Origin: an uncultured archaeon
GTDB lineage: Archaea > Asgardarchaeota > Lokiarchaeia > Sigyniarchaeales > SOKP01
Length of the DNA: 23,286 bases
NCBI GenBank assembly: GCA_964388035.1
Contig: CAYLZE010000081.1
Span: forward strand, 1 to 23,286
Direction: 5' to 3'
Notes under the pieces: model-generated
Seen by the model: the letters and a program-made list of their open reading frames with translations, nothing else
Databases searched by the model: none
Told to the model about the DNA's origin: nothing
In this document: positions 734-12,110 of the stretch, in pieces
Numbering within the stretch: position 1 is the first letter of the stretch
Layout of the letters: every line of letters starts with the position of its first letter
Translations under genes and position numbers: made by a program

Positions 734-1087
734 TTAAGAAAGGACTTGAATTAATTTCTCAACAGAATAATATCGGGTAAAGTATCCCTCCTTTTTTCCC
801 ATAATCAAACCTGCTTCTTCTAAAATTTTAAGGTGGTGTGTTACGGTTCCTTCTGATATTTGAAATACTTTAGCAAGAGCACAAGTACACATTGGCTTAT
901 CTTGAAGCAGTTTATACATGAGATATCTTTTCATCTTGGAAAGGGCCTTATGGATTTTGTACTCTTTTTTAGTTAATGTGTCATTCATCACATTTGCTAT
1001 AAAGTCTTCATGTTTATTTAAGAATTCAGTGCAAGATGTCCCGGGTTCTAATTCTTGAATGTACTTTTTAAATCTTTCTTCTGACAT
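734..1087 (-). CDS. arsR: ArsR/SmtB family transcriptional regulator
   Basis: KALS...R..YKLL; alpha3 CxC motif MCTCAL; HTH ISEGTVTHHLKILEEAGLI; wing GKKEGYFTRYY; extra N-terminal Cys. Confidence 0.85.
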   Translation of the reverse strand: MSEERFKKYIQELEPGTSCTEFLNKHEDFIANVMNDTLTKKEYKIHKALSKMKRYLMYKLLQDKPMCTCALAKVFQISEGTVTHHLKILEEAGLIMGKKEGYFTRYYSVEKLIQVLS

Positions 1088-1278: not shown

Positions 1279-1899
1279 ATGGGAAAGGTGCTAGAATTTG
1301 ACAATTTGACTATGGATGATTATATGGAAATCATGCCAAAAATATTACCTCTCGTACTTCACCAAACTACAAAGGTGCCCGTGGTTTTATTTGAATCGGT
1401 CATCTCTCAACTCAGAGAGATATGGACAGCCTCAGAGGAATTACCATTTCATGGCCCCTGGCATCATGGGATTGTACCAGCTGTTCTCATACAAGCGCTA
1501 AAAAACAATGATTATGACTTTATTGAAAAAGATGTGAAAGAAGCTTTTATGCGTGGCTTGAAAATACCTGCAGGAGGCTGTGGATTCTGCGGTACTTGTG
1601 GAGGTGGAAGTGGCGTAGGGATTGTGGCAAGCATTGTTCAAAAAGCCACGCCATTTCATGATAAAGAACGTTCTGAAGGATTTGAAGCCGCTTTAAGTGC
1701 TCAAAAGCAGATAGGGAAATTAGGTGGCCCTAGATGTTGCCGCCTCAGTGCTTATGTAGCAATTGATCAAGGAATTAAATATTTAGCGAAAAAGAACTAT
1801 TCCCTGCCTGAACAAAAAATGATTGGGCGATGTAATGTTTACGAGTTAAACGCTCAATGTCACGGAAAGCGCTGCCCTTACTTTCCTAAAAGTAAATGA
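1279..1899 (+). CDS. DUF5714 family Cys-rich protein (possible upstream CTG start at 1225)
   Basis: HGPWHHGIVPAVL, PAGGCGFCGTCGG, GGPRCCR, C-terminal C..N.QC.GKRCPYF pattern. Confidence 0.8.
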   Translation: MGKVLEFDNLTMDDYMEIMPKILPLVLHQTTKVPVVLFESVISQLREIWTASEELPFHGPWHHGIVPAVLIQALKNNDYDFIEKDVKEAFMRGLKIPAGGCGFCGTCGGGSGVGIVASIVQKATPFHDKERSEGFEAALSAQKQIGKLGGPRCCRLSAYVAIDQGIKYLAKKNYSLPEQKMIGRCNVYELNAQCHGKRCPYFPKSK

Positions 1900-2069: not shown

Positions 2070-2531
2070 ATGAAAAAGATAAAGATAACGATTTTCGCAC
2101 CCGATCCCGAGAATAACCTTTCAAATGGAATAACATATGTACCAGAAATAGATGATAATGGGTCAATAATCGATGCATTGAGTTCAATAGACAAAAAAAT
2201 TTTTAACCAACCGGAAAGATCTTTTTTTCCACTATACAAGGGATTAATTTACAGTTTCCTTCAATTAATTTGGGATGCCGAGGAGGATAATATTTATGAA
2301 GACTGCGGTGTGAATGCATATGGACCCAATAGGGAATATATGCCACTAAGAAGCGATATCAACTTTAATTTACTTCCTAACTCTGAAATTACAATTATCG
2401 TTCACGCTGATTGATGAGCAGATAATATGAAAGAGCGATTAGATTATGGTGCGTTTAAGAGAGTTATTAGAGATAAATTCGGAAAAGATAATGATAAATT
2501 TTTGCATTATTTCGCGCTAAAAAGGAATTAA
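2070..2531 (+). CDS. Beta-grasp (MoaD/ThiS/SAMP-like) protein, candidate selenoprotein with tandem UGA-UGA at 2412-2417 (153 aa if read through; 114 aa, 2070..2414, if not)
   Basis: Strand-strand-helix start (KKIKITIF / TYVPEI / SIIDALSSIDKK) and MoaD-like end (NFNLLPNSEITIIVHAD); in-frame TGA TGA, then 37 sense codons to TAA 2529-2531; SECIS-like hairpin immediately after. The 2070..2414 portion is a confident CDS; the extension is inferred. Confidence 0.6.
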
Positions 2532-2538
2532 TTATAAA

Positions 2539-2582
2539 ATGGAATGATATCATTCAAAAAATAATAGTGAAGGATGGACCAT
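2539..2582 (+). promoter_or_regulatory. Putative eukaryote/Loki-type SECIS element (kink-turn hairpin)
   Basis: AUGG(2539-42)/CCAU(2579-82) lower stem; AAU bulge; tandem GA(2546-47)/GA(2577-78) within AUGA...GA core; U.G pair; upper stem AUCAUUCA(2549-56)/UGAAGGAU(2568-75) with 7 of 8 pairs; A-rich apical loop AAAAAUAAUAG. Confidence 0.55.
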
Positions 2583-2834
2583 GGGATTGCATCTCATATT
2601 TAGGATTATGCTAAAATAATTTTTTGTAAATTTGAGATATAAATCCACATAGAATTATCTGGAAAAGGTATCATAAATTCAAACAATTTTTCATGAGTCA
2701 TTGTTAAAGTATTTTCGCTTCAAGATCTTCTAATCAAGTACGAAATTTTTACCTATAATCAGTGATAATTTTATAATCTAAACCTATTTAGAATAGACCT
2801 AATATTATTGAAATTAGCATACCTTTATTCCATT

Positions 2835-3602
2835 CTATGGTATTTTATTTCCCCATTTAGAGCTTGAATACTTTTCTCTCACTAATTTCCTTGCTCGATT
2901 CAGCTCTTCGTTTGTTAAGTCAATACGAGTTAATTCTAGGTGGAATGCTTTCTCAACTTGACTAATAATATCTTGAATGATCCTCTCAATTGTTATATAT
3001 CTGTTGAATGAGCGTATATTTGTTGTTTTTGTTCTATTACTAGGAACGTAGTGTCCTACTTCGGTATCAAGAGTCGTGTCGAGAACTTTTGTTAGAAGGT
3101 CAAGATCCGAATTTATTAATAAAGTACCATGATGCAAAACCGAATTTCCCCTAAAAAGTTGGGCACTCCCTGAAATTTTCTTGTTGTTGAGATAAATTGA
3201 ATTAGGAACGTGAAAAGAGCAATCTAAATGGGATTTCATTAACGCGTCAATAATTATAGTTATAAGGAATTTGTTTAGAATGGATACATTGTTTGAATAA
3301 TATTCACAGTGATTATTCATAAAGAATGAAAAGTTCAAGCACCCTAAATCTAAATATACCCCACCTCCCCCCGTAATTCTTCTTAATATGGGAACTTGAT
3401 GTTTCTTGCATGCGCGTATATTAACCTCCGCCTTTAAAGATTGATTTCTCCCTATAATTACGGAAGGTTTTGATCTCCAAAACCTTAAGATTAAATCGTG
3501 TTCTCTATTCTTCACTGATTGTAATAAAACCTCCTCAACAGCTTGGTTCAAAAAGGGATTCGATATACTTGGTAATATTACGCAGGCAACTTCTTGGTTC
3601 AT
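2835..3602 (-). CDS. lplA: Lipoate-protein ligase family protein (catalytic domain only; LplA-N/LipM-like)
   Basis: NQAVEE.LL, LRFW..KPSVIIGRNQ, RRITGGGGVYLD.G.LNFS, KKISGSAQ, HHGTLL. Confidence 0.9.
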   Translation of the reverse strand: MNQEVACVILPSISNPFLNQAVEEVLLQSVKNREHDLILRFWRSKPSVIIGRNQSLKAEVNIRACKKHQVPILRRITGGGGVYLDLGCLNFSFFMNNHCEYYSNNVSILNKFLITIIIDALMKSHLDCSFHVPNSIYLNNKKISGSAQLFRGNSVLHHGTLLINSDLDLLTKVLDTTLDTEVGHYVPSNRTKTTNIRSFNRYITIERIIQDIISQVEKAFHLELTRIDLTNEELNRARKLVREKYSSSKWGNKIP

Positions 3603-3815: not shown

Positions 3816-4895
3816 TTACCCGGGAGGTTGTTTACTATCCAATGATACAAGGTAATATTTCTTTTTAAAATATTTTGCTACATTTACTAAAGAGATCATT
3901 ACAGGAACTTCAATTAATGGGCCTATTACTGCAGCAAATGCAACTCCCGAACCTAACCCAAAAATCGATATAGCAATAGCAAGTGAGAGTTCAAAATTAT
4001 TACTTGCTGCTGTAAAGGAAAGACTCGTTGATCTCTGATAATCAGCCCCCAATTTTTTACTCATGACAAAACTAATTAGAAACATCAATATAAAATAGAA
4101 AAGCAGTGGAATTGCTATTATGACCACATCCAATGGAATTGATACCACTTGACCGCCTTTTAAGCCAAACATTATTATAATTGTGAATAAAAGAGCAATT
4201 AGTGTAATTGGAGAGATTTTAGGAATAAATTTTTCGGCATACCATTCAGACCCTTTTATCTTGATCAAAATCGTTCTGGTAACAAATCCAGATATGAAGG
4301 GAATTCCCAGATAGATAAATACACTTTCTGCTATGGAACCTATTCCAATATTTATTATATTGGATTGTAGTCCGAGCAAACTGGGCAATAAAGTAATATA
4401 AAACCAAGCAAATACACTATAAAAAAGAACTTGAAATATGCTGTTAAATGCCACTAAACCTGCCGCATATTCGCGACTCCCTCCCGCTAATTCATTCCAA
4501 ACAATAACCATGGCAATACATCGAGCCAGACCAATTAAAATGACACCAATCATATATTCGGGATAATTTCTCAGAAAGATAAGAGCAAGTACAAACATTA
4601 AAAATGGTCCAATTAACCAATTTTGAATTAGCGCCAATCCTAATATTTTTTTATCCTTGAAGACATCCCCCAACTCCTCATAATGTACCTTGGCAAGTGG
4701 AGGATACATCATTAAAATTAATCCGATTGCGATTGGAATATTAGTATATCCCACTTCAAAGTTTGAAAGAAATACTTCAAAACCTGGAAAGATAAATGCG
4801 ATTAAAATACCCACTATCATTGCTATGAATATCCAGAGGGTAAGGAATTTATCCAGATTTGAAAGCTTTTTGACGGGAATTCCAATTTTTTGCAT
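3816..4895 (-). CDS. acr3: Acr3 family arsenite efflux transporter
   Basis: [42 protein letters not shown] (conserved Cys), [15 protein letters not shown]; about 10 hydrophobic segments. Confidence 0.95.
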
Positions 4896-5230: not shown

Positions 5231-5722
5231 TTAATAAGTGCTAATTTGTTGACTTTCTAACTCATCTAAATTAAGCCCTTTTTTCTGCAACTCTGTATAG
5301 ATGTAATGTATTACTTTTTTAATATCCTCTTCTTTAATCTCACTTAATTTATTCTTATTTTTAAAGGAGTTGAGATCATTTAGGTTAAGACGTTGTTTAG
5401 GAATGATATCTTGGACGGAGATTACTAAATCTGGTTTAATTTCCAAATGTTCATAGATTTGACTGGCACAAGCCGTATTACAGCCATTAATTACTATCAA
5501 GAAGGAATTTTTTAAGTGTTTTTTAGTAAGCTCAACCATGTTATCTTTACCTAATAACACATTCTTTAAAAAAATAGTTGAGCATGTCATTGAAGCTAAG
5601 ATTGATATTTTACTGTTTTCTATTAATTGAATTGCTACTTTTCGTGCGAGTTCTCCGTGATACTCCGCCCCGGAACAGGGGATTAATATGATATTATTAA
5701 ATTTCTCTTCGATTTCGTTCAA
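5231..5722 (-). CDS. DGC-domain putative zinc/metal-binding protein
   Basis: IPCSG...GELAR.VA, central Cys (SMTC), IVINGCNTACA; TTG start 1 nt after upstream stop. Confidence 0.8.
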   Translation of the reverse strand: MNEIEEKFNNIILIPCSGAEYHGELARKVAIQLIENSKISILASMTCSTIFLKNVLLGKDNMVELTKKHLKNSFLIVINGCNTACASQIYEHLEIKPDLVISVQDIIPKQRLNLNDLNSFKNKNKLSEIKEEDIKKVIHYIYTELQKKGLNLDELESQQISTY

Positions 5723-5723
5723 C

Positions 5724-6014
5724 TCATATCAAACCCTTTTCCTTTAGAATTACAGGTAATTTCTTCTTTAATGCAAAAGAACTGGTAACCACATCTTTTC
5801 CGTCGATAACTACACTATTTCCATGAAGGTTTAAATTGCGTGCCTCCTCGGAGTCAAGATTCTTGGTTTCAAATTTTATATATTTATTGTATTCTGTTAA
5901 TACCTGAAACACCAAATTCATGAAATTTTCCCATTGGCAAGCACATACATTCAAAGGAATATACACATCAACCTGTAATTTATTTTCTTCCAACTTTTGT
6001 TCGGCTTTTGACAT
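5724..6014 (-). CDS. Small CxC protein, possibly thioredoxin-fold/ArsD-like metallochaperone
   Basis: VDVYIPLNVCAC then helix; SVVIDGK strand resembles the Trx-fold P.vvidG region; SD AGAGGTG upstream; co-oriented between arsR and DGC gene. Coding is confident, function is tentative. Confidence 0.55.
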   Translation of the reverse strand: MSKAEQKLEENKLQVDVYIPLNVCACQWENFMNLVFQVLTEYNKYIKFETKNLDSEEARNLNLHGNSVVIDGKDVVTSSFALKKKLPVILKEKGLI

Positions 6015-6029
6015 TTGATTTTACACCTC

Positions 6030-6350
6030 TTATATATTTTCTTGAATCTCCAATATTTTTTCATATTTTTGTTCTCGCTTAATAATATTATCAAGTACCG
6101 CTAATAGTTTAAAAATGCGAGAATCTTTTATTTTGTACATGACTTTAACACCATCTTTTCTACTTTCAATTATATCAGCGAGTTCCAATTTCTTTAAATG
6201 TCTTGAAATCATGGATTGAGATTTTTCCAACATTTTCTCGAAATCGCAGCCACAGAGCTCTCCTCCATGACGTAGGAGACCTATAATCTCAAGTCTTGTT
6301 TCATCTGATAAAGCTTTAAGCTTTTCCAATCTCAATTTTTCTAATTTCAT
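6030..6350 (-). CDS. arsR: ArsR family As(III)-responsive repressor
   Basis: LKALSDETRLEII, ELCGCDF (cf. ELCVCDL alpha3 site), SQSMISRHLKKL, RKDGVKVMY. Confidence 0.92.
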   Translation of the reverse strand: MKLEKLRLEKLKALSDETRLEIIGLLRHGGELCGCDFEKMLEKSQSMISRHLKKLELADIIESRKDGVKVMYKIKDSRIFKLLAVLDNIIKREQKYEKILEIQENI

Positions 6351-6571: not shown

Positions 6572-6961
6572 TTGAGTAAAGAAAAAAAAAAAATTGGATT
6601 TATCATGTGCGTTTGTACGGGAAAATGTCCGGGCTTTGCAAAAATGGATGTTTGGGATTTTATTAACCGTATTCGAATAGAATTACCCGTTGAATATGGA
6701 TTTATCCATCCACAATTATGTGAAGAAGATGGGGATCGTTTCTTGGATGACTTTTTACGACCTGGTCGCAAATATCTAATTGGTGCATGTGCCCCCAACA
6801 TGCAATATAAAATGTTTCGCGATGCATTTAATAAGGTAGGACTTGATATAAAAAAAGATCTTATCCCATTAGATATTAGAGAAATGACAACCGATGAAGC
6901 CGTGGAATTGGTAGAAAAAACATTAGAAAAAATGGAAGAGGAGGATAAAAAAAATGAGTAA
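6572..6961 (+). CDS. Stand-alone heterodisulfide reductase subunit A N-terminal-domain-like protein
   Basis: KIGFIMCVC, HPQLCEEDG, IGACAP...KMFR....GL, LDIRE parallel HdrA RIGVYVCHC / MCSDPG / ACSP..H..TF / NIRE; TTG start; no FAD domain. Confidence 0.75.
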   Translation: MSKEKKKIGFIMCVCTGKCPGFAKMDVWDFINRIRIELPVEYGFIHPQLCEEDGDRFLDDFLRPGRKYLIGACAPNMQYKMFRDAFNKVGLDIKKDLIPLDIREMTTDEAVELVEKTLEKMEEEDKKNE

Positions 6962-7250
6962 AAGTTATGATTCAAATAAAGAAACCTTCATGGGCGTCCC
7001 GCGAAATAAAATCCCCTGGTGGCCAACTATAGATTATGAAAAATGTAATTTTTGTATGGAATGCGATAAATTTTGCCCCCATGATGTCTATGAAAAAACC
7101 GAAGGGGAACATAAGAATTTAATTGTGAAAAATCCTTATAACTGCGTGGTTTTTTGCCGTGCGTGTGCTAAAGCTTGTGCTCTTGACGCATTATCTTTTC
7201 CTGATAAACGAGAAATCACAAAAATGATAAAAGAATTAAGAGCTGAATAA
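6954..7250 (+). CDS. 2x[4Fe-4S] ferredoxin-type protein
   Basis: CNFCMECDKFCP and CVVFCRACAKAC motifs; PRNKIPWWPTID leader; overlaps upstream stop. Confidence 0.9.
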   Translation: MSKSYDSNKETFMGVPRNKIPWWPTIDYEKCNFCMECDKFCPHDVYEKTEGEHKNLIVKNPYNCVVFCRACAKACALDALSFPDKREITKMIKELRAE

Positions 7251-7264
7251 GAAGGCGATTAAAA

Positions 7265-8152
7265 TTGAACGATGAGAATATTTGTATCCTTCCCTGCAAT
7301 GGATTAGATAAATCTTTAGGGGTTATTGCTCGCGAAGTTGCTTTAAGAATCATGGAGAAATTTCCCAATATCAAATTAATTTGTCCGGTATTATTGAATT
7401 CTGGGGATAAAACCTATGAGGAACTCTTAAGGAATTTGAAAATCATAGTAATTAATGGTTGCATGACAAGGTGTCCTACAAAATTGATAGAAGAACGCAG
7501 TGTTAAACCTTTCAAGCAAATAATGATTCCCGAAATGTCCAAGAAATATAAAATTAAACCATCCAAGAGTTTAAGATTGGATGAAGAGAATATTAAGCTC
7601 GTGAACCAAATTGCTGACGAGATCATTAAAGATTTAGAAGATACCGGACAAGAAGAAGAAAAGCATGTGCGAGAATTCGGAGAACAGGGTTATTTTGATA
7701 TTACGGTTGATAAATATTATTTTACCGTTCCTAAAGAGGGATATTTTTTTAATGAAAATGACTGTTGGATAAAGCCTATTGGAAAAACGGCTTTATTAGG
7801 TATTTCCGATTATCTGCAAAATGCTGCCAGCGATGTCTTATTTGTCGATTTACCTGAAGTTGGAAATATGGTGGAGCAATTTGATGATGTGGGCTCTTTC
7901 GAATCCACAAAAACCGTATTGCAATTAATTTCACCAGGTTCTGGAAAAATAATCGCTGTAAATAAGACTCTAGAGCAGCATCCAGAATATTTAAATCAAG
8001 ATCCTTACAATAAAGGATGGTTTGTTGAAATTGAACTGGAAAATTTTGAAGAAGATCATGAACTTTTAATGAATTGTCCACAATATTTTGAATATATGAA
8101 AAATAAGGCAATTAAAGAAAAAGACCATTTAGATAAAATGAAAGGTGAATGA
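7265..8152 (+). CDS. DGC domain fused to glycine cleavage H-protein (lipoyl carrier) domain
   Basis: N-half LPCNG, LICP, IVINGCMTRCP; C-half LGISDYLQ, DVLFVDLPEVG, ESTKT (lipoyl Lys216, codon 7910-7912), SPGSGKIIAVN, NQDPY..GW. Confidence 0.9.
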   Translation: MNDENICILPCNGLDKSLGVIAREVALRIMEKFPNIKLICPVLLNSGDKTYEELLRNLKIIVINGCMTRCPTKLIEERSVKPFKQIMIPEMSKKYKIKPSKSLRLDEENIKLVNQIADEIIKDLEDTGQEEEKHVREFGEQGYFDITVDKYYFTVPKEGYFFNENDCWIKPIGKTALLGISDYLQNAASDVLFVDLPEVGNMVEQFDDVGSFESTKTVLQLISPGSGKIIAVNKTLEQHPEYLNQDPYNKGWFVEIELENFEEDHELLMNCPQYFEYMKNKAIKEKDHLDKMKGE

Positions 8153-8153
8153 A

Positions 8154-8576
8154 ATGGCTGAAAAAAAAGTATATATTATTCCGTGTAGCGGAATTGGAAA
8201 AGTTTTTGGAAGTATAGGCAGGGAAACTACATACATTACAGTAAATGAATTAGCAAAGGGAAAAGCAGAATTGGAATGTTTACCTTTAATAGTAAAGGGA
8301 AAAAAGAAAGTCATTGAGGATTTAAAAGCGAATAAGATAATTGTAATCGATGGATGTCCATTAAAATGCTCTTATAACAATGTTATGGAACAAGTGGGAA
8401 AAGTGGATGCTCAATTCATGACTACTAACATCGTCAAGGAAAATCGAGAATTAAAACCCGAATCTTGCATAATTCCGATCGGTGAAAATACTAAAACTTT
8501 ATCCCAAAAACTAGCTGAAAATGTATCAAAAAAAGTAGATGAATTACTCGAAAATGGAGAGGAGGTGAAGGATTAA
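8154..8576 (+). CDS. DGC-domain putative zinc/metal-binding protein
   Basis: IIPCSGIGK, ECLP, IVIDGCPLKCS; ATG 8154 preferred over GTG 8145 because SD GGTGA lies at 8144-8148. Confidence 0.85.
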   Translation: MAEKKVYIIPCSGIGKVFGSIGRETTYITVNELAKGKAELECLPLIVKGKKKVIEDLKANKIIVIDGCPLKCSYNNVMEQVGKVDAQFMTTNIVKENRELKPESCIIPIGENTKTLSQKLAENVSKKVDELLENGEEVKD

Positions 8577-8996
8577 ATGAGGAAGAAGATAGGAATTATC
8601 GCATGTAGTGGAGAAAAGTTAATTGGGGGAACTCTGAGCCGTGCTGCTGCTAGAATTGTAGTAGAAAGATTGAGACCGAATAGCACGATTGTTTTATGTC
8701 AACCATTATTTGCTGCCGGGGGTTTAGAACGTCATGGAGGACAAGAAGAACGAAATTTTGCTAAAGAACATCCCACGATAACTATTGAAGGGTGTGAAGA
8801 AGAATGTTCGAAAATTGCGGTTGAAAGATATAGTGGACCTGTAGCGGCGACAATTAGGATTGATGACATCTTAAAAGCACATCCGGAATTGAATCCAAAT
8901 TCTCGGGAAGATTTAGGAGAAGAAGGGATGAAATTAGCACAGATAATTGCGGAAGAGGTTGCTAAAAAGGTTGATGAGTTATTTATAGCTGACTAA
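8577..8996 (+). CDS. DGC-domain putative zinc/metal-binding protein
   Basis: IIACSGE, VLCQP, ITIEGCEEECS; SD GGAGGTGA upstream; abuts previous stop. Confidence 0.85.
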   Translation: MRKKIGIIACSGEKLIGGTLSRAAARIVVERLRPNSTIVLCQPLFAAGGLERHGGQEERNFAKEHPTITIEGCEEECSKIAVERYSGPVAATIRIDDILKAHPELNPNSREDLGEEGMKLAQIIAEEVAKKVDELFIAD

Positions 8997-10667: not shown

Positions 10668-12110
10668 TCATTTTGTTATATTTATGGATTCACTCGCAAT
10701 TCTTGACAATTCTCTTTTCAATCCCTCATTTATGGGTTTAATTTCCGGTTTAGCATTTAAATTTTTTAATTCTTCGTTTATTCTCTTCCTCGTAGAAAGA
10801 GCTCCTGAGTTTAACCAAGAACTATAAGACATTCTATTGATAATGGAACTGGTAAAATAAAGCTCTTTCTTATAAAGGTTTAGAGTGGAGGGATGAGATA
10901 ATAAGTTCCCTTTTTTTCGAAAGTCTTCGATTATATCCGAAGCAAAAGGAAGGTCGTGATCGGGAATACCTGCAATTAATTTTTTAACCATTCCGGCGAT
11001 TTCGTTATCTATCATTAATTTACTAATACTCTGGGTGGATTCAGATTCTAACATTCCGGGACCAGAAATGACATTGATTCCGGCCAGTGCTCCTAAAATC
11101 AATCCAATTCCAGCTTCAAAAGCCATCTGTAAATCAAGCATTTTCGAATCACTCACGCACATGTAAGCATGGGTAGGAATTTTTAGATATTTCCCCATTT
11201 CTATATTTCCAATATTCATCATCATTGCTTCTATTGAGCCCATTGGGGAGGTGCCTTGCCTCATATCGAGCACGGCAGGAGAGCCGCCCCAAATTAAGGG
11301 GGCACCTTTATTAGTTAATTGCGAAATTACTACTCCTGCTAGATTTTCTGCACACATTTGAGTTATCGATCCGATTAGAGTAATGGGACCATTAGCTCCA
11401 GCTATAGGCATTGAAACGAATTCTATTGGGATCTTGCTTCTTGCTCCATCTATAATGGCTTGGGTGGTTAAATCCGTCCATATTAAGGGAGGAGATGGAG
11501 CTGCGTCAAAAATCGCAAGTGGTTTATTTGCCAAATCCTTTTCAGATAGTCGACAAGTTAATAGCAATTCTTTCATGATTTGAAAACTGTCTTTATTAAA
11601 GGTACCAGTTATAATCGGTTTATAACAATAATTCAAGCAAATAAATAATCGATACCAATCTTGTGAAATTATAGGTACATCTTGGCACACCATTGCCGTG
11701 CTTTGCGCGTCAATATATTTAAGCTTTTCTACCACTTGAGTAAACTTTATGAAATCCTCTGTCTTTGCATGTCTTCTTTCTCCCGTGTTTTCGTCGATCA
11801 CGTTCATTGCTGTCGATCCCGGGTTAAACAATACGTTATCATTTTCTAAGAGAAAATGCTCGTTTCCCTCTCGATCATATAATTTAATTTGATTGGGAAC
11901 CGATTTGACACATTTTTCAGCGAGATCTGGAGGAATAAAAAATAAAGATTCTACGTGATTTAATCCTTCTTCTTTTAAAATTTCGGCGGCTACTTTATTT
12001 TGAACTTGTACTCCTTGGCGTGAAAGAATTTGTTTTGCTTCCAGTAATACTTTATCTTTATGATCATCATCTAAAATAGTAATTTTCGGTCTAATCATGT
12101 TCAATATCAT
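10668..12110 (-). CDS. Trimethylamine methyltransferase (MttB/COG5598) family, non-pyrrolysine
   Basis: SPPL, GANGPITLIG, AENLAG, DMRQG, SDSK..D.Q..FE, AGINVISGPGMLES, IDNEI; uninterrupted ORF with Val before SDSK, where Pyl is recalled to sit in methanogen MttB. Confidence 0.9.
   Translation of the reverse strand: MILNMIRPKITILDDDHKDKVLLEAKQILSRQGVQVQNKVAAEILKEEGLNHVESLFFIPPDLAEKCVKSVPNQIKLYDREGNEHFLLENDNVLFNPGSTAMNVIDENTGERRHAKTEDFIKFTQVVEKLKYIDAQSTAMVCQDVPIISQDWYRLFICLNYCYKPIITGTFNKDSFQIMKELLLTCRLSEKDLANKPLAIFDAAPSPPLIWTDLTTQAIIDGARSKIPIEFVSMPIAGANGPITLIGSITQMCAENLAGVVISQLTNKGAPLIWGGSPAVLDMRQGTSPMGSIEAMMMNIGNIEMGKYLKIPTHAYMCVSDSKMLDLQMAFEAGIGLILGALAGINVISGPGMLESESTQSISKLMIDNEIAGMVKKLIAGIPDHDLPFASDIIEDFRKKGNLLSHPSTLNLYKKELYFTSSIINRMSYSSWLNSGALSTRKRINEELKNLNAKPEIKPINEGLKRELSRIASESINITK

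Follow-up and report, generated by a model that had tools for sequence, protein, structure and literature searches.

The DNA considered here is a stretch of 23,286 nt (the window) from an uncultured Lokiarchaeia archaeon (Sigyniarchaeales; SOKP01), corresponding to positions 1–23,286 of the forward strand of contig CAYLZE010000081.1 in GCA_964388035.1, and its subject is a gene at 2070–2531 that contains two adjacent in-frame UGA codons. Sequence comparison indicates that the product of this gene, here called the UU protein, is very likely a real selenocysteine (Sec)-containing protein. The best explanation of the evidence, which we hold with good confidence, is that 2070–2531 is one gene, that both UGA codons would be decoded as Sec under the direction of a downstream lokiSECIS (a selenocysteine insertion sequence, SECIS, element), and that the product would serve a metal(loid)-related or redox function. 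The features concerned are:

2070..2531, plus strand, complete coding sequence of the predicted 153-amino-acid Sec-Sec protein (ATG 2070, TAA 2529–2531; translated with TGA as U)
2412..2417, plus strand, UGA-UGA predicted to be read as Sec115-Sec116 (TGA 2412–2414, TGA 2415–2417)
2418..2528, plus strand, conserved 37-codon C-terminal helical extension, or tail (from pN/pS and AlphaFold helices)
2539..2582, plus strand, lokiSECIS (lower helix 2539–2542/2579–2582; AUGA 2544–2547; GA 2577–2578)

The open reading frame (ORF) at 2070–2414 ends in HAD-TGA-TGA, where codon 114 (GAT, D; 2409–2411) is the last before the double TGA, and the same frame continues for 37 sense codons (ADNMKERLDYG...ALKRN) to the TAA at 2529–2531; the coordinates and translation given for this frame in an initial annotation of the window were confirmed. 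By arithmetic from base composition, a stretch of 37 open codons is expected by chance in ∼6% of cases at 33% GC, so the single sequence is not significant by itself, and it is the comparative evidence across genomes that amounts to far more than chance.

Six-frame searches over 161 Lokiarchaeia genomes matched the read-through protein in 136 of them, and a profile from an alignment of 21 family members (A1) matched 138, giving a frequency of ∼85% of the genomes of the class, often with at least two copies. Nearly all matches span residues 1–150, and each full-length match contains two or three in-frame TGA codons, a pattern common to orthologues (60–72% identity) and paralogues (38–49%) and present also in other families and orders at 24–33% identity, where the motif is PDAGC-U-U. 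Contigs of three further metagenome runs have identical bases at 2412–2417, and contigs from four DNA runs of salt marsh or sediment agree at these positions, no RNA run being listed for the sequence. The UU pair is retained in all 68 of the distinct family members examined. In the rest of the phylum (239 genomes), profile A1 matched a single genome (G309), and this match is an N-terminal fragment without stops (profile positions 4–70) and not a UU homologue. Judged from these searches, the UU-protein family of selenoproteins is restricted to the class Lokiarchaeia.

Codon selection was compared among 30 orthologues, in which the hexamer TGATGA is unchanged (30/30) while synonymous sites are near saturation (proportion of synonymous differences, pS, 0.63–0.66). 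The ratio of nonsynonymous to synonymous proportions (pN/pS) is 0.235 over the 33 codons after the UU pair and 0.270 over the 100 codons before it, and the two alternative frames of the tail contain 2.8 and 4.3 stops on average. Homologues ending at HAD with TAA or TAG, which the initial annotation had named as evidence that would speak against its proposal, were not found; TGA-TGA is retained together with a tail under purifying selection, and the conservation past the UGAs that it had put forward as a check is as strong as that of the body. The same annotation had raised the possibility that 2427..2531 is an independently translated ORF of 34 amino acids. This is excluded because its start Met is not conserved where the tail is kept: Met 2427 is absent from one relative (L032), from all paralogues, and from distant members, all of which retain the tail (e.g., EKVRNRLD, NQFGKRLS).

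The hairpin with an AUGA/GA core that had been noticed ∼8 nt after the TAA is real, with a lower helix from 2539/2540, and three lines of evidence bear out its proposed identity as a SECIS: the published definition, covariation, and specificity across the genome. In the published lokiSECIS (PMC4989117), AUGA precedes a 9-bp stem whose 11-nt apical loop begins with about five A and closes with AG, and GA (or AA) comes after the stem; positions 2544–2578 of the window fit this definition apart from one A.G stem mismatch, with 9-nt stem arms at 2548–2556/2568–2576 and the 11-nt loop AAAAAUAAUAG at 2557–2567. AUGA, stem, A-rich loop, and GA lie directly after the stop codon in all members. The AUGA starts 132 nt downstream of the first UGA in the window and 120–138 nt downstream in nearly all members, a nearly fixed distance (∼131 nt) although the position of the stop codon varies. 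In an alignment of 33 homologous 3′ regions of UU-protein genes (A2), a three-helix structure is paired in 94% of cells and 13 of its 16 pairs show compensatory change; none of 500 shuffles reaches the observed pairing, and slid controls reach 44–56%. The third helix forms a further hairpin:

2581..2597, plus strand, conserved hairpin 3′ of the SECIS with loop UUGCA (helix 3 of A2, columns 49–63)

Its five pairs are 96% paired, four of them with compensatory change, and the loop is UUGC(N) family-wide; descriptions of the lokiSECIS do not include this hairpin, which could belong to the base of the SECIS or serve the 3′ end or stability of the transcript. In some distant members the SECIS and the 3′ end of the coding sequence overlap (L050:1914-1993, L051:1902-1981, L045:1936-2000, and L044:1423-1488), and the stop codon is the UGA of the AUGA core or is located in the apical loop; the L051 element has a type-II-like ministem and an AA core. 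Another locus (L021; G133:C27:6405-7341) contains tandem UU genes 20 nt apart, the first with GC-UU and the second with HAD-UU, and a SECIS solely after the second, which suggests that all four UGAs of the pair of genes depend on a single SECIS, as in hdrA-vhuD. On the minus strand at 2631–2683, Rfam rows resembling C/D-box snoRNAs (E 1.4–4, far below gathering scores) are probably chance.

A strict lokiSECIS pattern has 10 sites in the window's own genome (G000; a 5.47-Mb assembly with 33% GC) and 0, 0, and 0 in three shuffles. The sites are placed as follows:

four sites after vhuD-like ORFs with a CxxU motif, 4–18 nt past their stops
two sites after UU-protein family genes
one site after a HesB-like ORF with an in-frame UGA
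three sites (C9:15487, C90:1750, C114:16014) without a clear upstream selenoprotein ORF

With a covariance model built solely from the 3′ elements of the UU-protein family (R1), two more elements of this genome score 42 and 28 bits, each located just after a vhuD-type CxxU ORF; an R1 match at C38 (L056) was set aside, with no clear upstream selenoprotein ORF. The HesB/IscA-like ORF is in itself a separate observation: it encodes 116 amino acids with one in-frame UGA (FMRS-U-SGTSC) at G000:C6 ∼94709 on the minus strand and ends 13 nt before its strict pattern match, and the seven Asgard families listed by Huang et al. (2024; PMC11227280) include no HesB-like selenoprotein. Similarly, the pattern sites at G000:C90 ∼1750 (plus strand) and G000:C114 ∼16014 (minus strand) adjoin similar short UGA-rich frames (...SEURSTURSGK...LLULL...), and these frames may represent a repeat or a further gene with several UGAs.

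The Sec machinery that the initial annotation had proposed looking for is present in the genome as SelD (itself with an in-frame U), SepSecS, PSTK-like and EFsec-like genes, and a tRNA-Sec candidate:

G000:C47, SelD with one in-frame TGA, 184 bits, above cut-off
G000:C6, SepSecS, 471 bits, above cut-off
G000:C18, PSTK-like gene, 153 bits
G000:C59, EFsec-like gene, 237 bits
G000:C6:4085-4188 (L057:1501-1604), plus strand, tRNA-Sec candidate, 25.3 bits, 290 nt upstream of SepSecS

SepSecS was found in 153 of the 161 genomes of the class, and two single-contig genomes (G013, ∼4.4 Mb; G016, ∼6.0 Mb) have it together with the UU family. The tRNA-Sec candidate has the anticodon UCA in a CUUCAAA loop and a long variable arm, and its T loop is extended by a 19-nt insert; a tRNA-Sec with a 31-nt T-loop intron has been described in Loki (Mariotti et al., PMC4989117). 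Searching with RF01852 returned no tRNA-Sec at the default E and this candidate at E up to 10, and Aragorn reported 7–22 tRNAs in the assembly and no tRNA-Sec, missing the candidate next to SepSecS.

A third Cys or Sec accompanies the UU pair in 67 of the 68 distinct members, a count that is descriptive and not statistical, the sequences being related. It takes the following forms:

GC-UU, 29 members, plus 6 that also have Cys79
U-G-UU, the paralogues with three TGA codons
Cys79 in the HAD-UU subfamily, 31 members
Sec at +7, one member of the window's genus

The ancestral motif appears to be G-C-U-U, and the subfamily of the window combines D-U-U with Cys79 (EDCG).

Cys at the two UGA positions of homologues, for which the initial annotation had suggested a search, was not found. 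HMMER against 1.84 billion representatives returned 90 matches, mostly proteins of ∼110–120 amino acids ending at profile position 112–113, where gene prediction stopped at the first UGA; a few of the matches are translated with WW. The distant set has G-C-[IS]-[TS]-[DE]-[WF]-E where the family has G-C-U-U. Two Sec-free homologues are Bathyarchaeia proteins from metagenome-assembled genomes, named "hypothetical," which keep the preceding Cys and have I, S, or T at the UU positions. Sec-free forms keeping this Cys, without a Cys-Cys form, point to the preceding Cys as the ancient residue and, as read from these sequences, to the UU pair as a Lokiarchaeial addition. The neighbors at the two Bathyarchaeia loci (LUD, glyoxalase, HxlR, a P-type ATPase fragment, and an ABC transporter) gave no functional lead, and no ars genes are present at these loci.

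The proposal that the protein has a beta-grasp fold is supported by AlphaFold, Foldseek, and VIA-align. An AlphaFold2 model computed on A1 has a predicted local distance difference test (pLDDT) score of 90.2 and a predicted template modeling (pTM) score of 0.87, with beta-grasp strands at 2–9, 21–23, 79–84, and 105–111 and a helix at 33–46; the tail forms helices at 117–124, 126–137, and 145–148 (pLDDT 86–95) that are predicted to pack on the domain. Foldseek matches the model best to H. volcanii SAMP1 (E 2e-3, probability 1.00), to a Pyrococcus MoaD-like protein, and to Urm1. In VIA-align, the transcobalamin beta domain scores in the same range (Z 6.2–6.9) as CysO, SAMP1, and a MoaD-related protein, and this range is common according to the tool. 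Superposition on E. coli MoaD (1fm0_D) places model residues 3–116 on chain residues 1–81, with U116 and the terminal Gly81 as the last pair, and the SAMP1 alignment has the same register as that of MoaD, with model residue 113 opposite residue 84 of the 87 in the chain. At the level of model geometry, with modest scores (Z 4–7, Foldseek E ∼2e-3), both the beta-grasp fold and the placement of UU at the Gly-Gly position are thus supported. Neither Pfam (including ThiS, PF02597) nor NCBIfam matches the UU protein, the 96-amino-acid CxC protein described below, or four Sec-free homologues, and sequence-profile searches of the PDB gave no meaningful match. A protein atlas places the 114-amino-acid part in unnamed clusters from Promethearchaeota and Bathyarchaeota, with a score of 0.76 to a ThiS-bearing cluster. 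No E1-like gene (MoeB/ThiF/UbaA) was seen among the annotated ORFs of the window. Membership of the UU protein in the MoaD/ThiS family is not supported, since it has no Gly-Gly, free C-terminus, Pfam match, or E1 neighbor.

The gene stands in an arsenic locus, as the initial annotation had stated, and the ACR3 gene and two ArsR-family genes were confirmed. The neighboring features are:

734..1087, minus strand, ArsR-family regulator (PF01022, 1.1e-12)
1279..1899, plus strand, Cys-rich DUF5714 protein upstream of the UU gene (PF18978, 6.9e-42)
3816..4895, minus strand, ACR3 arsenite efflux transporter (TIGR00832, 437 bits against a cut-off of 283)
5724..6014, minus strand, thioredoxin-fold CxC protein of 96 amino acids with the motif VCACQW (tblastn, AlphaFold, Foldseek)
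6030..6350, minus strand, second ArsR-family regulator, heading the minus-strand run (PF01022, 8.4e-13)

The minus-strand run consists of ArsR, the CxC protein, a DGC-domain protein, and then ACR3 and LplA. The model of the CxC protein has a pLDDT of 91.5, its top Foldseek matches are thioredoxins (E ∼1e-3, probability 1.00), and its CxC motif is invariant and stands at the thioredoxin active-site position; ArsD is not among the top Foldseek matches. When 1.5 kb around the UU gene was searched by tblastn in 40 related loci, an ACR3 homologue was found in 15 and the CxC protein in 22. The usual order in related genomes, on one strand, is ACR3 (or HgcA-like plus HgcB-like), the CxC protein, and the UU protein. 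For example, the genome's own U-G-U-U paralogue closes an operon at L105:2226-7072 (G000:C9), in which a divergent ArsR precedes DUF166, ACR3-like, methyltransferase::HgcA-like, HgcB-like, CxC, and UGUU genes; the fusion has 553 amino acids and combines an S-adenosylmethionine methyltransferase with a CdhD/HgcA-like corrinoid domain, and the HgcB-like ferredoxin has a Cys-rich tail. Such placement within operons suggests a part in exporting or methylating metal(loid)s.

Several other genes of the window touch on the same context. The DUF5714 protein (motif GGCGFCGTCGGGSG) matches the middle of NF045648, "metal-binding double selenoprotein MbdU," at 1.2e-18, a score far below the cut-off, so it is related to MbdU and not a member; it is a Cys-only form beside a selenoprotein gene. 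At 2835–3602, 5231–5722, and 7265–8996 lie a lipoate-protein ligase and four DGC-domain proteins, one of which is fused to a glycine-cleavage H/lipoyl-carrier domain, and a small ferredoxin is encoded at 6954–7250. As the lipoyl dithiol is a classical arsenite target, the window may contain a dithiol-based arsenic module. Further away, at 10668–12110 on the minus strand, an MttB-family (trimethylamine methyltransferase-like) gene of 480 amino acids has no in-frame TAG and is a non-pyrrolysine member.

In the mechanism that we propose, residues 1–113 would form a MoaD/SAMP/Urm1-like beta-grasp domain whose last strand leads into Sec115-Sec116, and both Sec residues, inserted under the direction of the lokiSECIS at 2539–2582, would sit where sulfur carriers have the terminal Gly-Gly, with the three-helix tail packing back on the domain. 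The vicinal diselenol together with the third Cys or Sec would make a soft three-chalcogen site, and this site could bind three-coordinate As(III)/Sb(III) or Hg-type metal(loid)s; alternatively, it could act through diselenide/diselenol cycling, as an electron relay with the CxC thioredoxin-fold partner. Either way, the UU protein would work with the CxC protein, serving ACR3 efflux or HgcAB-like operons. From the sequence context, a role in metal(loid) handling is somewhat more probable than a role elsewhere, and a binding or chaperone role specifically, rather than that of a reductase, is a tentative proposal that falls short of even chances. More tentative still is the idea of a selenium-based counterpart of the beta-grasp carriers, with Sec-Sec in place of Gly-Gly, in which a triselenolate/thiolate site would capture As(III)-type metalloids, or Hg, for delivery to ACR3 or an HgcAB-like module for methylation.

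A number of observations weigh against the interpretation of 2070–2531 as a doubly Sec-decoded gene for metal(loid) or redox chemistry. The window's own SECIS stem holds one A.G mismatch and one G.U pair, an Rfam scan of 2380–2720 returned no SECIS family and weak snoRNA-like rows with E above 1, and the single-sequence fold of 2536–2600 does not exceed shuffles in stability (z −0.03), a score that is uninformative for a kink-turn element. The tRNA-Sec candidate lies below the Rfam threshold (25.3 vs. 47 bits), and the EFsec-like and PSTK-like genes fall short of the curated cut-offs set for the non-Asgard models against which they were scored. The HMMER search of 1.84 billion representatives found no Cys-Cys homologue, although replacement of Sec by Cys in homologues is a supportive and not a defining mark of selenoproteins. 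The Sec decoding is predicted from genes and models, and a fraction of the protein may terminate at D114. With regard to function, the closeness of Cys79 to the UU pair is predicted from beta-grasp topology, the UU gene of the window is convergent to the ACR3 operon and not inside it, many of the related loci (all but the 15 of 40) have no ACR3 within 1.5 kb, and the proposed role draws on neighborhoods in related, non-independent genomes.

The simplest competing account is that ordinary tandem stops end a protein of 114 amino acids, with the downstream frame being due to chance or to a 34-amino-acid ORF from the ATG at 2427. Tandem stops are common, an open frame of this length arises by chance in ∼6% of cases, an ATG is indeed present, and public gene calls end the protein at the first TGA, most HMMER matches stopping at 112–113. 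Against this stand the 30 orthologues in which TGATGA never becomes TAA or TAG at saturated synonymous divergence, a tail that is under purifying selection, is kept without the Met in paralogues and distant members, and is packed on the domain by AlphaFold (pTM 0.87), and a covarying lokiSECIS at a fixed distance, so that this account is extremely improbable. A second possibility accepts readthrough of a different kind, in which one UGA only would encode Sec, or Cys or another residue would be inserted at one or both, with truncated, Cys, and Sec forms perhaps varying with selenium supply. Adjacent UGAs may decode inefficiently, and in Sec-free homologues the fold tolerates I, S, or T at the UU positions; however, both codons are invariant TGA class-wide, including paralogues with a third TGA, and the SECIS and the Sec machinery are present. 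If the residue were replaceable by Cys, TGT or TGC would be expected somewhere, and neither occurs at either position among the matches listed (>180 matches in all). Mixed or non-Sec decoding is accordingly a poor prospect, improbable on this evidence.

A further alternative agrees with the interpretation preferred here that the gene encodes a real Sec-Sec selenoprotein and differs over what the protein does: it would be a general diselenide oxidoreductase, or a selenium or sulfur carrier like MoaD/SAMP (e.g., via a perselenide), and the link to ars and hgcAB-like genes would be incidental. The sulfur-carrier-like fold with UU at the Gly-Gly position, the thioredoxin fold of the partner protein, the many loci without ACR3 within 1.5 kb, and the two Sec-free Bathyarchaeia loci without ars genes are all in its favor. 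It is nevertheless somewhat unlikely, as the pair of UU and CxC genes comes last in ACR3 or HgcAB-like operons of different genera, both copies in the window's genome lie in ArsR/ACR3 loci, no E1-like gene was seen beside the UU gene of the window, and UU lacks a free C-terminal carboxylate.

The metal(loid) or redox selenoprotein favored here resembles several known systems in part. With the lokiSECIS genes already described (HdrA-VhuD, VhuU, and PrxL; PMC4989117, PMC11227280) the UU gene shares the in-frame UGA, the 3′ element, the Sec machinery, and the use of one SECIS for more than one Sec, the tandem UU genes of L021 sharing one as hdrA-vhuD does; in contrast, the UU protein is unrelated to these proteins, its Sec residues are adjacent, it has no Cys orthologues, and its element has an extra conserved hairpin after the SECIS and a nearly fixed distance from UGA to SECIS. 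MoaD, ThiS, CysO, SAMP, and Urm1 have the same beta-grasp, in which the reactive pair of the UU protein stands at the end of the last strand, whereas the UU protein has no Gly-Gly or free C-terminus, 37 residues follow the pair, and an extra insert lies between helix 1 and strand 3.

Vicinal-chalcogen sites are represented by Cys12-Cys13-Cys18 of ArsD, the C-terminal Cys-Cys of MerA and HgcB, and the Gly-Cys-Sec-Gly of thioredoxin reductase. The likeness to these proteins consists in adjacent Cys or Sec residues on a flexible segment, a third ligand, and arsenic- or mercury-type operons; the UU protein differs in being a beta-grasp and not a thioredoxin or flavoprotein fold, in having selenium at both vicinal positions, and in that its binding is putative. 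For ArsD, whose marks are a thioredoxin fold, vicinal Cys residues, and ArsA, the likeness is in the proposed mechanism only, and no ArsA was found in the 23,286-nt window. Metazoan selenoprotein P likewise has several UGAs decoded in one message, and adjacent Sec residues occur in some SelenoP tails. The UU protein, however, is archaeal and small, uses a single SECIS ∼130 nt away, and has no relation to selenoprotein P in sequence or fold.

Seven families of Asgard selenoproteins have been found by homology (Huang et al., 2024; PMC11227280), and 11 archaeal families have been recognized, all via homology to known families or Cys homologues (2026 review, PMC13188914). The UU family is absent from both of these sources and from Mariotti 2016 (PMC4989117) and Sun 2021, and full-text literature searches returned nothing relevant on Sec-Sec or arsenic-linked Loki selenoproteins. 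The view of the initial annotation that this is not a known archaeal selenoprotein family therefore holds for the searchable literature, and the UU proteins apparently form an undescribed family within the lokiSECIS-decoded selenoproteins, with a predicted function. The family was missed because it has no Cys form and because gene callers cut it at the first UGA.

The Asgard selenoproteome thereby gains a widespread member, and the UU genes provide a natural test case for the processive decoding of adjacent UGAs by a eukaryote-like SECIS system. Annotation pipelines truncate these genes and probably others, such as the HesB-like frame with a lokiSECIS in the same genome. If the proposed decoding is true, the Lokiarchaeial ribosome would decode two consecutive UGAs with one eukaryote-like SECIS, and the UU protein would be, as far as the searchable literature shows, the first prokaryotic protein with obligatory adjacent Sec residues; if the carrier or metallochaperone role is also true, it would be the first dedicated selenoprotein metallochaperone.

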